Below, in pieces: positions 1 to 3,000 of a stretch of 61,137 nt of DNA. The DNA lies in the sequence record KJ909655.1; one strand, given 5' to 3'. The DNA is from Escherichia Stx1-converting recombinant phage HUN/2013. The position numbers were made by a program. The number at the start of each line of letters is the position of its first letter. Position 1 is the first letter of the stretch.

Positions 1-3000
1 GCTGAGAATGCACGGGGGCCCCGGGGGCCTCAGGGAGAAACTGGTCCGAAGGGGGATGTCGGTCCTAAAGGCGAAACAGGTCCAGTGGGCCCTCAAGGGC
101 CCGCAGGGCCGAAAGGTGAGCGTGGTGACGTTGGTGCTCAGGGGGCTGTAGGGCCTGCTGGTCCGCGTGGTGAGAAGGGCGAACAGGGGGAGCGAGGACC
201 GCAGGGAATACCAGGCCTGAAGGGGGATACCGGAGAGCGGGGGCCTAAAGGGGACCAGGGGGATATGGGGCCAAAAGGCGAGAAAGGTGATCCGGGAGGT
301 CCTGCAGGCCCGCAAGGTCCTAAAGGCGAACGAGGAGAAGCCGGACCACAGGGACCGATGGGAGCACGAGGTGAGCGTGGGGAGACTGGCCCCCGAGGTG
401 AACCTGGTCCTGCAGGTCCGAGAGGCGAACGAGGAGAGACCGGACCTCAGGGACCTCGTGGAGAGCCAGGTCCGGCAGGCAGCGCTGCAAATGTGGCTGA
501 TGCAACGACGGCACAGAAGGGAATTGTGCAGTTAAGCAGCGCAACGGACAGTGATGATGAAACGAAGGCTGCCACCCCGAAAGCGGTGAAAGCGGCAATG
601 GATGTGGCAAATGAAGCGAAAACAAAGGCAGAAGAGGCTGCAGCAGGAGGTGGTGTTCCCGGTCCGAAAGGAGATAAAGGGGACACGGGGCCAGCAGGTC
701 CGGCTGGGCCGAAGGGTGATAAGGGAGAGCGCGGTGACACCGGCCCTGTCGGGGCAACCGGCGAACGGGGACCGGCAGGTGATGCTGGTCCGGCAGGCCC
801 GCAGGGGCCGAAAGGTGACAGGGGAGAGCGGGGAGAGACCGGTCTGACGGGAAATGCAGGTCCACAGGGTCCAAAGGGAGATACCGGTGCGGCAGGCCCG
901 GCAGGCCCACAGGGACCGAAAGGAGAAACAGGTGCGGCAGGCCCGGTGGGGGCGACCGGACCTCAGGGGCCGAAGGGCGACCCGGGGGAGACGCAAATAC
1001 GGTTCCGTCTGGGGCCGGGAAACATTATTGAGACAAACAGCCATGGCTGGTTCCCGGATACAGATGGCGCACTCATCACCGGACTGACCTTTCTTGACCC
1101 CAAAGATGCCACACGGGTTCAGGGTTTTTTTCAGCATTTGCAGGTCAGGTTTGGTGACGGGCCGTGGCAGGATGTCAAGGGGCTGGATGAAGTGGGCAGT
1201 GATACAGGCAGAACAGGAGAATGACATGAATATTTTGAGAAAGCTTATGCAGAGTCTGTGCGGTTGCGGAAAGCATGATGACTGTGAAAACGGGCAGTCG
1301 CTTACAGCACAACTGCGACTGGGACCGGCAGACATTCTGGAGTCAGATGAGAATGGCATTATTCCGGAGCAGGACAGGGTAATCACACAGGTGGTGATAC
1401 TGGATGCAGATAAAAAGCAGATACAGTGTGTGGTAAGACCGCTGCAAATCCTGCGTGCTGACGGGACGTGGGAAAATATTGGCGGGATGAAATAGCCGAC
1501 AGCTTCACAAAAACCGGAGCCCGGCTCCGGTTTTTGTTGTCATGTATAGGGGGGGGTTATTAGAGAGTGAAGTAATAAACATGTTAATACGATGGAGTGA
1601 AGGATGCCGTGTAATTCTGGTTCAAGAGTTTTTTATGCCGGAAAATCGCAGGATTATTCTGGATAGTAAAGAATCCTGGTTAATAATCTGTGATAGTCAG
1701 TTGGGCCATTTAATGCGCAGTATGTATCAGGGACGCCGTTTTATTCAGCTGAATCTGGAAAAATTGAAAGGGGTACATGATGTCGCCTTGCCAGTGAAAT
1801 GGGAATTCACACGAAGACAGTGAATAGCTTTCTGTATACGGGAATGGCGAAAAATGGACTGTATGGTGTGAGTGTGAAACATCTTGCGTGTGCGGAGTGA
1901 TGCTTCTCGTTGCTACAGCGGCAATGATAATGCAGTGAAAAAAGGGGAGCAATATGCTCCCCCAAACCGAAAGAAAATTGCAATAATCAATGAAGTTATT
2001 TAGTCATCATCAGAATGTCATGCAAGGCATTTTGTTTCAGTGATGCCGATCGCGATTTTAGCGAATTCCATCATAAATCCCCTGATTTTTAAGCCTGAAG
2101 CAGTCAAAGGAATTTCTATGCCCTATATCGATATCACCACGATGCGTGGGATGATGCCGCGCGTTGTGACATCCATGCTGCCCGAGCATTCCGCTGTACT
2201 GGCGGAGGACTGCCATTTCCGGTTTGGTGTTATTACACCAGAACGTCAGATATCCGGGGTTGAGAAAACATTCACAATTAAGCCAAAAACAATTTTTCAT
2301 TACCGTGACGATTTCTGGTTTGCATGGCCGGATGTGGTGGATGTGATCCGCAGTCCGATCGCTCAGGACCCCCACGGGCGTATTTACTACACTGACGGGC
2401 GTTTTCCTAAAGTGACGGATGCGACTATTGCCACAAAAGGGGACGGGAATCACCCGACATCATCGTATCGTCTGGGGATCCCCGCGCCGACGACAGCTCC
2501 TGTCTGTACTGTTCAGCAGGGCGGTGATGTTTCTGACGATAACCCGAATGATGATGAAACCCGGTTTTATACGGAAACCTTTGTCTCAGATTATGGTGAA
2601 GAAGGTCCGCCAGGTCCGGCGTCTCTGGAGGTAACACTCCGTACTCCGGGAACTGCGGTACAACTGACGCTGGCTCCGGTGCCATTGCAGAATGCCAGTA
2701 TTAAACGTCGCCGGATTTATCGCTCTGCATCAGGTGGAGGGGAGGCGGATTTTTTACTTGTGGCTGAACTGGATGCATCCGTGCTCAGTTACACGGACAA
2801 AATACCGGCGAAAAACCTTGGGCCTTCCCTGGCGACATGGGATTACCTGCCGCCGCCAGAGAATATGACAGGCCTTTGCCTGATGGCTAACGGTATTGCC
2901 GCCGGGTTTGCCGGTAATGAAGTGATGTTTTCGGAAGCGTATCTGCCGTATGCATGGCCGGAAGTGAATCGTCACACGACGGCAGAAGATATTGTAGCTA

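Follow-up and report, generated by a model that had tools for sequence, protein, structure and literature searches.

The post-fibre interval of an Stx-converting podophage: a candidate fibre-partner gene, a terminator and a putative regulator gene remnant

What does an Stx-converting phage carry immediately behind its tail-fibre gene, and does any of it act as cargo? This question is raised by positions 1226-1823 of Escherichia Stx1-converting recombinant phage HUN/2013 (sequence record KJ909655.1), the whole analysed stretch of which, 61,137 nucleotides (nt), is referred to as the window. An initial annotation placed here a Cys-rich open reading frame (ORF) of 89 amino acids, regarded as a possible fibre accessory protein, and, beyond a terminator, an AT-rich island with a weakly supported ORF of 80-93 amino acids, regarded as a moron with host-range or exclusion cargo. 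The window represents a 933W/Sp5-type Stx-converting podophage, its positions 900-2200 being 100% identical to 933W, VT2-Sakai (Sp5), Stx2 converting phage I and dozens more Stx-converting podophages. Both ORFs are labelled ‘hypothetical protein’ in the 933W records: the first (ORF1) is 933W L0122, Sp5 ORF68 and ECs1229 (Sakai), and the second (ORF2) is L0123, ORF69 and ECs1230. The explanation preferred here, which is considered probable when taken as a whole, is that ORF1 is a real gene for a partner of the fibre, that the terminator is an insulating one, and that ORF2 is a dead gene at the scar of a crossover.

ORF1 and the tip of the tail fibre

The elements relevant to ORF1 are the following:
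1226-1495, plus strand: ORF1, 89 amino acids, with its ATG 1 base past the TGA of the fibre gene
1214-1217, plus strand: Shine-Dalgarno sequence GGAG of ORF1, 8 bases before the ATG, as read from the sequence
676-1224, plus strand: 3′ part of the tail-fibre gene (933W L0121, Sp5 ORF67, ECs1228), containing the second collagen-like segment and the C-terminal Phage_fiber_C (PfC) domain (about 997-1188)

In ORF1, a helix is predicted at the N-terminus (residues 3-12) and a C-x-C-x2-H motif is present; residues 28-89 form a PfC domain (PF06820), which is matched with E = 5e-36 and 123.3 bits (cut-off 25) over all 64 profile positions. The fibre’s C-terminal ~64 residues belong to the same family (E = 2e-35), the Pfam matches of the fibre being Collagen, Phage_fiber_2 and Phage_fiber_C. 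The domain in ORF1 is not located at a fibre C-terminus, but in a separate ORF that is in a different frame from the fibre and has its own ribosome-binding site, and the two PfC copies share 34% identity at the protein level and 56% at the DNA level, with a longest common run of at most 7 nt. Judged from these comparisons of sequence, ORF1 is a stand-alone paralogue of the fibre tip. Since the fibre stop codon (TGA at 1222-1224) and the ORF1 start are 1 base apart, translation of ORF1 is likely to be coupled to that of the fibre gene. Existing labels are phrog_576 ‘tail fiber protein’ (PHROGs) and ‘phage tail fiber C-terminal domain-containing protein’ (Prokaryotic Genome Annotation Pipeline, PGAP). 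The initial annotation was correct as to the 89-residue ORF and its good ribosome-binding site, and had missed that ORF1 duplicates the fibre tip domain; its term ‘Cys-rich’ is overstated for 4 Cys in 89 residues, three of which (C12, C14 and C68) are nevertheless conserved in nearly all alleles, the fourth (C20) being mostly Arg.

Selection on ORF1 was evaluated with an allele set derived from 80 IMG/VR loci, comprising 82 copies and 53 distinct nucleotide alleles. ORF1 is intact in 81 of these 82 copies, and the pooled ratio of non-synonymous to synonymous polymorphism (pN/pS) is 0.05 in the PfC part, where third codon positions make up 20 of the 28 variable sites, and 0.27 in the first 27 codons. 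The fibre’s own PfC domain has, in the same loci and at similar pS, a pN/pS of 0.23-0.25, and ORF1 is therefore the more constrained of the two copies. The linkage to the fibre gene is equally apparent: the ORF1 ATG lies 1 base after the stop codon of the upstream frame in all 73 copies with enough upstream DNA, this upstream frame is open and PfC-ending in 70 of the 73, and 66 of 81 related copies have the upstream context of ORF1 in common. Positions 1200-2120 are matched in 760 of 5426 complete E. coli genomes, with a median of 11 places per matching genome. The gene order in lambdoid siphovirus prophages is J, Lom, collagen-like Stf, ORF1, terminator and cargo, and ORF1 therefore occupies the position of lambda’s tfa. 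Together, the selection, linkage and copy-number data render it unlikely that ORF1 is a drifting relic or silent cassette, and point to a protein acting together with the fibre’s distal end.

The PfC domain forms the distal globule of the fibre and was shown to be trimeric for EPclA PfC, where the isolated domain of 7.2 kDa behaves as a 24 kDa trimer in size-exclusion chromatography with multi-angle laser light scattering (Ghosh 2012, PMC3368898). The ORF1 product, with its short N-terminal helix, Cys/His motif and PfC domain, and probably translated by coupling to the fibre gene, would likewise be a trimer and would serve the distal end of the collagen-like fibre as an accessory or assembly partner. 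Our best guess for its role is accordingly an accessory protein associated with the fibre, and the suggestion made in the initial annotation is plausible; ORF1 matches the fibre’s own C-terminal PfC family, and a Tfa/Caudo_TAP match is lacking. ORF1 could also alter adsorption or host range on natural hosts, as a trimeric copy of the fibre tip in free form, a notion to which we give tentative status.

A published deletion analysis of Sp5 is directly relevant here (Mondal 2016). It describes ORF68 as a non-essential late gene of 89 amino acids, noting its fibre C-terminus domain, and places nine other Sp5 ORFs in the essential class; the ORF68 deletion mutant is viable and still plaques and lysogenises on K-12. 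This viability bears on the reading of ORF1 as a non-structural chaperone, Tfa-like but unrelated and absent from the virion, which would help the collagen-like fibre to trimerise, by nucleation or proof-reading. Such a role would be in keeping with the tfa position after a stf-like gene in lambdoid prophages, with the strict linkage to (and probable translational coupling with) PfC-ending fibres, and with PfC being a trimerisation module. It is made unlikely by a deletion mutant that plaques and lysogenises, by the trimerisation of PfC alone and of the Col-PfC fragment where no helper was supplied (Ghosh 2012, PMC3368898), and by the absence of Caudo_TAP similarity. A match of ORF1 to a known fibre assembly chaperone, which would have counted against the initial annotation, was looked for in Pfam and not found. 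As for membership of the Tfa/Caudo_TAP family itself, this was rejected, Pfam at E up to 1 returning PF06820 only and NCBIfam nothing.

Poorer still are the prospects of ORF1 as a silent reservoir cassette, from which recombination or frameshifting would provide the fibre with an alternative C-terminal tip, an idea of Mondal 2016. Fibre tip and ORF1 do carry one and the same domain, and a 10-nt repeat, GGACCGGCAG, is present in the same codon phase in the fibre collagen (769-778) and in ORF1 (1322-1331); moreover, a natural protein (P0063; locus L122, 4-291) is exactly the collagen-to-ORF1 fusion expected from deletion between these repeats. This protein is, however, a single case at a contig end and is treated as a rare accident. 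ORF1 has a conserved start and ribosome-binding site of its own, purifying selection at the protein level is ~4x stronger on ORF1 than on the fibre tip, and the PfC-coding stretches, at 56% nucleotide identity, have no common run above 7 nt. Programmed frameshifting from fibre to ORF1 was rejected as well: no slippery sequence was seen close to the fibre stop, the ‘GAA TGA C’ context precludes a slip of the release factor 2 (RF2) type, and Mondal 2016 likewise saw no frameshift signal between the fibre gene and ORF68. The reservoir role is for these reasons thought very unlikely.

An exclusion lipoprotein of the Cor/Llp type was considered and rejected on inspection of the N-terminus across alleles, as neither a signal peptide nor a lipobox is seen; C12 and C14 are preceded by ~11 residues with internal Arg/Lys and Gln/Arg (in most alleles MNILKKLMQRLCGCG), and Pfam gives no Cor match to ORF1. 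Tryptic peptides of ORF1 are LGPADILESDENGIIPEQDR, VITQVVILDADK, QIQCVVRPLQILR and ADGTWENIGGMK; phages phi346 and phi349 have the same sequence as the window here.

Terminator, regulator remnant and mosaic junction

Downstream of ORF1 the following elements are found:
1507-1535, apparently bidirectional: intrinsic terminator, A5-CCGGAGC-CCG-GCTCCGG-T5
1542-1823 (93 amino acids) or 1581-1823 (80 amino acids), plus strand: ORF2, frame 3 remnant of a receiver-like N-terminal domain
1781-1900, plus strand: 3′ regulator remnant (helix-turn-helix end), with an ORF at 1799-1900, ‘MGIHTKTVNSFLYTGMAKNGLYGVSVKHLACAE’, representing a stranded C-terminus that is out of frame
1894-1938, plus strand: remnant of a small membrane-protein ORF, last 14 codons and stop (‘...LLVATAAMIMQ’), intact in GER2 and PhiR12_4

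The terminator, correctly predicted between ORF1 and the AT-rich ORF, folds at -24.8 kcal/mol (z = -6.1), although it is not listed by a simple terminator scan; because an A-run and a T-run flank its stem, it looks bidirectional. It is kept after ORF1 in related loci with small variants, positions 1496-1545 giving 90-98% matches to many siphovirus Stx phages, and its position marks the boundary between fibre module and cargo. In the prophage state the terminator would insulate the structural operon from the downstream cargo, while during lytic growth a Q-modified RNA polymerase would, by general lambdoid biology, read through it.

The island that follows (1496-2117) is AT-rich, as had been claimed, with 42.1% GC compared with 49.7% for the whole window, which places it in the lowest 5% of 600-nt windows; it is of mixed foreign origin, and its protein-coding matches are to truncated gene remnants only. 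ORF2 itself exists in both predicted lengths, and PGAP has a third version of 62 amino acids from 1635. A poly-G run at ~1549-1557 varies in length (-1, +2, +3) among near-identical phages, and because this variation breaks the 93-residue frame, its start is unreliable.

The nature of ORF2 becomes clear from comparison with intact counterparts, which are genes for 157-180 amino acids: 2B8 gp25, GER2 AVD99026 and PhiR12_4 XSB41975. Positions 1605-1799 (frame 3) correspond to residues 23-87 of 2B8 gp25 (tblastn/blastn), and positions 1781-1897 (frame 2) to residues 119-157 of the PhiR12_4 protein, with 92.6% nucleotide identity to PhiR12_4 over 1781-1901. Relative to the intact genes, one deletion of ~165 nt has removed the upstream region, the native start and the first ~20 codons, with its junction at ~1600-1608, and a second deletion of 112 nt at ~1781 has shifted the frame. 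The copy in the window has thereby lost its first ~22 residues and has its DNA-binding end in another frame, so that an intact two-domain frame does not exist. Further damage is seen in relatives: an element of the IS66 insertion sequence (IS) family, with three genes including one for a transposase-like protein of 523 amino acids, lies inside the ORF2 remnant of locus L009 (~3400-6050), whose ORF1 is identical to that of the window; one phage has a frameshifting one-base insertion at 1763; and the homologue in another strain is called a pseudogene by PGAP. ORF2 matches just 5 protein clusters in a database of 5.8 billion proteins, and its comparison with PDB sequences gave nothing meaningful. 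On the evidence of these alignments ORF2 is a pseudogene, the dead remnant of a gene for a NarL/FixJ-like regulator with a receiver-like domain and a LuxR-type helix-turn-helix, and not, as initially proposed, an intact moron gene.

The assignment to this regulator type is based on the parent family, which has 157-180 amino acids, is found in E. coli records only and, at full length, has no Pfam match. Intact copies are present in loci L004 (3220-3762), L007 (2647-3120) and L005 (2617-3117), with proteins P0126-P0168. A full-length family model built from a 25-sequence alignment (predicted local distance difference test score (pLDDT) 83, predicted template modelling score 0.77) has an N-terminal domain of alternating strands and helices and a four-helix C-terminal domain, and its best 42 PDB matches in Foldseek are all full-length regulators of the NarL/FixJ family or related LuxR-type regulators (EvgA, FixJ, DesR, RcsB, VpsT), at probabilities of 0.47-0.99 and E values of ~1e-3 to 6e-2. 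The family sequence profile finds LuxR/GerE proteins only, and these weakly (E = 0.08-0.26). By reading of the alignment, not by superposition, D52 at the phospho-acceptor position is nearly invariant, while T7 and N9 stand where an acidic pair is expected after strand 1. The family looks like one of atypical regulators, which are probably phosphorylation-independent. PsrA/PsrB and RgdR were rejected as identities, being members of an AraC-type family and a DUF4222 protein, respectively.

Genes of this family are found in two settings, between ORF1 and NleG effectors or downstream of a YadA-like adhesin gene. In loci L028 (3976-4109) and L089 (4001-4134) a second, partial copy of the ORF1 3′ end, 88% identical to window positions 1355-1490, is present downstream of an intact regulator gene. 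This places the gene between direct repeats, by which it could more easily be lost or exchanged.

The two remnants of the regulator gene are of different ancestry. Positions 676-1781, which run from the second collagen segment through PfC, ORF1 and the terminator to the 5′ remnant, are shared with lambdoid prophages at 93-95% identity, the block 676-1608 being matched in 2B8 and in loci L028 and L089. Within the island, 1496-1781 matches lambdoid 2B8, 1781-2117 matches podophage GER2 and 1781-1901 matches PhiR12_4, so the allele switches at ~1781 from the 2B8 type to the GER2/PhiR12_4 type. The 5′ remnant represents the lambdoid allele, found after ORF1, and the 3′ remnant the podophage allele, found after YadA-like adhesin cargo. 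The podophage backbone is back at ~1905-1939 (91% to GER2 and phage 86), and at the other end of the module the fibre’s N-terminal portion (60439-60857) matches phage 86. Since the 5′ and 3′ remnants are different alleles, a crossover at the break in ORF2 is the simplest reading of this mosaic pattern. The interval would then be the right end of a fibre-tip module common to 933W-type podophages and lambdoid siphovirus prophages of E. coli carrying the enterocyte effacement locus (LEE), and a scar of recombination would come after it: by a crossover between two diverged copies of the regulator gene, a podophage would have gained the lambdoid fibre-tip block and lost an intact regulator.

Several points weigh against the explanation as a whole. 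For ORF1, the viable ORF68 deletion argues against any required assembly role on K-12, and its link to the fibre is a partnership suggested by gene context. Its AlphaFold monomer is poor (mean pLDDT 63), with an all-beta PfC domain in that poor model, and Foldseek with this monomer finds no PDB match at E < 0.7, so that no fold is assigned; PDB sequence searches with the single sequence and the profile gave nothing meaningful, and a solved relative is lacking. For ORF2, the 80-residue frame is intact in most 933W-type phages, where copies are >99% identical and leave no power for a selection test. In addition, plaques and lysogens were several-fold more numerous upon deletion of Sp5 ORF69 than with wild type, a phenotype that was uncomplemented (Mondal 2016). 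This in-frame deletion maps to window positions ~1590-1811, a stretch that is therefore not neutral, and the effect may possibly be exerted through a peptide, or through DNA or RNA by altering read-through to the essential tail genes.

The former possibility amounts to ORF2 being a functional, truncated receiver-like protein of 80 amino acids that damps phage production or lysogenisation. Apart from the several-fold rise in plaques and lysogens upon its deletion, membership of phrog_2014 and an intact frame in most 933W-type phages agree with this. The protein would, however, be without the first strand and helix of its domain, with its DNA-binding end out of frame; its gene has lost the native start, has a weak ribosome-binding site before the ATG at 1581, is IS-interrupted or frameshifted in close relatives and is seldom called as a gene; and the published phenotype, being uncomplemented, could be explained by a DNA or RNA effect. 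A functional ORF2 is accordingly judged improbable, and L0123/ECs1230 is best annotated as a gene remnant.

A minus-strand RNA and the question of cargo

Two further elements are situated at the right end of the island:
1937-2063, minus strand: candidate small RNA (sRNA), with terminator hairpin 1963-1943 and U6 1942-1937, outside the ORF1 and ORF2 coordinates
2118-3743, plus strand: next backbone gene (933W L0124, Sp5 ORF70/ECs1232), which marks the return to the podophage (Sepvirinae) backbone

The only island RNA with published support is on the opposite strand, just outside the coordinates initially annotated, where it had been missed. A terminator scan found here a GC-rich minus-strand hairpin with a fold of -16.8 kcal/mol (z = -3.9), the plus-strand side of which has no U-tract, and weak -10-like hexamers are present at 2060-2055 and 2075-2070. 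In Hfq UV cross-linking and cDNA analysis (CRAC) of Sakai, the intergenic region ‘ECs1231...ECs1232’ ranks 27th among Hfq-bound intergenic regions (Tree 2014 Table S1B), with reads in one strand column only, in 5 of 5 samples (Tree 2014). Because SroC, RyhB and AsxR share this column, and Spf, MicA and CyaR fall in the other, we infer that it represents the minus strand of the chromosome; late genes are on the plus strand in Sakai. Reads from RNase E cross-linking, ligation and sequencing of hybrids (CLASH) match window positions 2032-1998 on the minus strand exactly and uniquely (Waters 2017 supplement), and single hybrids were recovered with MgrR and with rRNA, one of each (Waters 2017).

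These data suggest that the island may encode an sRNA of ~110-125 nt on the minus strand (from ~2050-2063 to 1937), bound by Hfq and RNase E and made in lysogens, possibly acting as an MgrR sponge or as an antisense modulator of late transcripts; we offer this, as we do the free, host-range-changing ORF1 tip mentioned above, as a possibility short of even chances. The RNA is absent from the EcOnc list (Tree 2014 Table S2) and has no name in the sources checked, and HnrS was rejected as its identity, not being in Sp5. An Rfam scan of positions 1000-2400 at E up to 10 gave nothing near a gathering score, the best match being RsaOG on the minus-strand hairpin (27.5 bits versus 50). Among diverged relatives, the sequence upstream of ~2040 is nearly identical in podophages, whereas the body varies and the stem of the hairpin is preserved; the stem being identical in all relatives, and the loop differing only in locus L093, covariation gives no support. 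Conservation of the upstream part may just as well be due to the start of L0124.

This start is ambiguous, as older annotations use GTG 2040 (567 amino acids) and PGAP uses ATG 2118 (541 amino acids), which has a good ribosome-binding site; near-perfect podophage conservation starts at ~2040, at the older start. The plus-strand neighbour on the other side of the RNA is the small membrane-protein remnant at 1894-1938, identified by tblastn with residues 47-60 of GER2 AVD99014. Intact versions (L005 3117-3299, L007 3125-3298) have a basic N-terminus and a hydrophobic C-terminus, and in GER2 and PhiR12_4 the ORF ends at the minus-strand hairpin. The layout of a small ORF and a convergent RNA resembles, speculatively, a type I toxin-antitoxin pair.

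Does the island, then, carry cargo? A moron is reportedly distinguished by a different base composition, by its own promoter and terminator and by expression from the prophage. Of these, the island has the low GC, a terminator and in vivo RNA on the minus strand only, and on the promoter side just the weak -10-like hexamers. The post-fibre position did turn out to be a hotspot, as had been surmised. In related prophages the place after ORF1 and the terminator is taken by NleG and by NleC-like, NleB-like and NleH-like type III effectors, by IS elements and by other cargo. In phage 86 and in the phage of the O104:H4 outbreak, an adhesin-like gene and Cor precede the homologue of L0124, and GER2 and a prophage of JNEC-KY177 have a YadA-like adhesin at the post-fibre position. 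The position is by this comparison a cargo hotspot, with only remnants in this phage, where a gene for host-range or exclusion cargo is not present. That the island is an active moron with such cargo, as its low GC, the Cor, adhesin and effector genes of relatives at the same position and the minus-strand RNA detected in lysogens might suggest, is scarcely credible, given that all protein-coding matches in 1496-2117 are to truncated remnants and that no Pfam or PDB match to a functional product was obtained, and the protein-cargo version of it is largely refuted.

Relation to known systems

The genes on either side of the interval are both required for infectious Sp5 particles (Mondal 2016): the tail fibre is essential and was located to the tail by immunoelectron microscopy, and Sp5 ORF70, the L0124 homologue, is an essential tail-formation gene (Mondal 2016 Table 1). 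The window is apparently a circularly permuted whole phage genome, the fibre gene of 1938 nt being split into 60424-61137 (714 nt) and 1-1224 (1224 nt).

The sequences, the domain assignment and the non-essentiality are already published, and the region is largely known and ordinary, with no major change to its current understanding. The present analysis adds data on selection and linkage for ORF1, the reading of ORF2 as a pseudogene at a junction, a fold assignment for its parent family and a pointer to an RNA without a name in the sources checked. ORF1 is of interest for its constraint and its copy number, the stretch that includes it matching ~11 places per carrying enterohaemorrhagic E. 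coli (EHEC) genome and ORF1 always lying behind a collagen-like fibre gene, and its role, once known, would help to explain host recognition by Stx phages and effector-carrying prophages. The junction is where podophages would have acquired a siphovirus fibre-tip block, an example of tail-fibre modules moving with virulence cargo. The minus-strand RNA could act in the manner of the prophage anti-sRNAs or, located shortly before the essential tail gene L0124, modulate the late transcript as an antisense RNA, and would be one more candidate among the prophage sRNAs that tune EHEC physiology.

The closest known counterpart is Sp5 ORF68, the gene of Mondal 2016, which is identical to ORF1; the variation reservoir proposed there is argued against, as the main role of ORF1, by the selection and nucleotide-identity data. 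ORF1 resembles the PfC domains of EPclA and EPclB (Ghosh 2012) in that its residues 28-89 cover the full 64-position profile and in its occurrence in the same prophages, but it is a stand-alone protein of 89 amino acids in which a 27-residue segment with helix and Cys/His motif takes the place of the collagen stalk. From the PfC domain of the adjacent fibre it differs in being just 34% identical and far more conserved. With lambda Tfa (Caudo_TAP, PF02413) it shares a position right after a side-tail-fibre-like gene, small size and dispensability in the laboratory; no sequence similarity was found between them, ORF1 being a paralogue of the fibre tip.

Full-length relatives of ORF2 resemble EvgA, RcsB and FixJ, being modelled as a receiver-like alpha/beta domain followed by a four-helix DNA-binding domain. 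They differ from these regulators in that the receiver-like domain is short (~90 residues), lacks the acidic pair and has no Pfam match, and the copy in the window is, moreover, truncated and frameshifted.

Exchangeable effector loci or morons are said to lie downstream of tail-fibre genes in lambdoid prophages. The present locus is like these in its AT-rich island and in the cargo that relatives carry after ORF1 and the terminator, but the slot is here filled with gene remnants, with no effector among them. Finally, the Hfq-associated sRNAs of EHEC prophages (AgvB, AsxR and HnrS) have in common with the candidate minus-strand RNA a short length, an intrinsic terminator, recovery with Hfq and RNase E in lysogens and a prophage cargo slot, whereas its location and its sequence are different from theirs.

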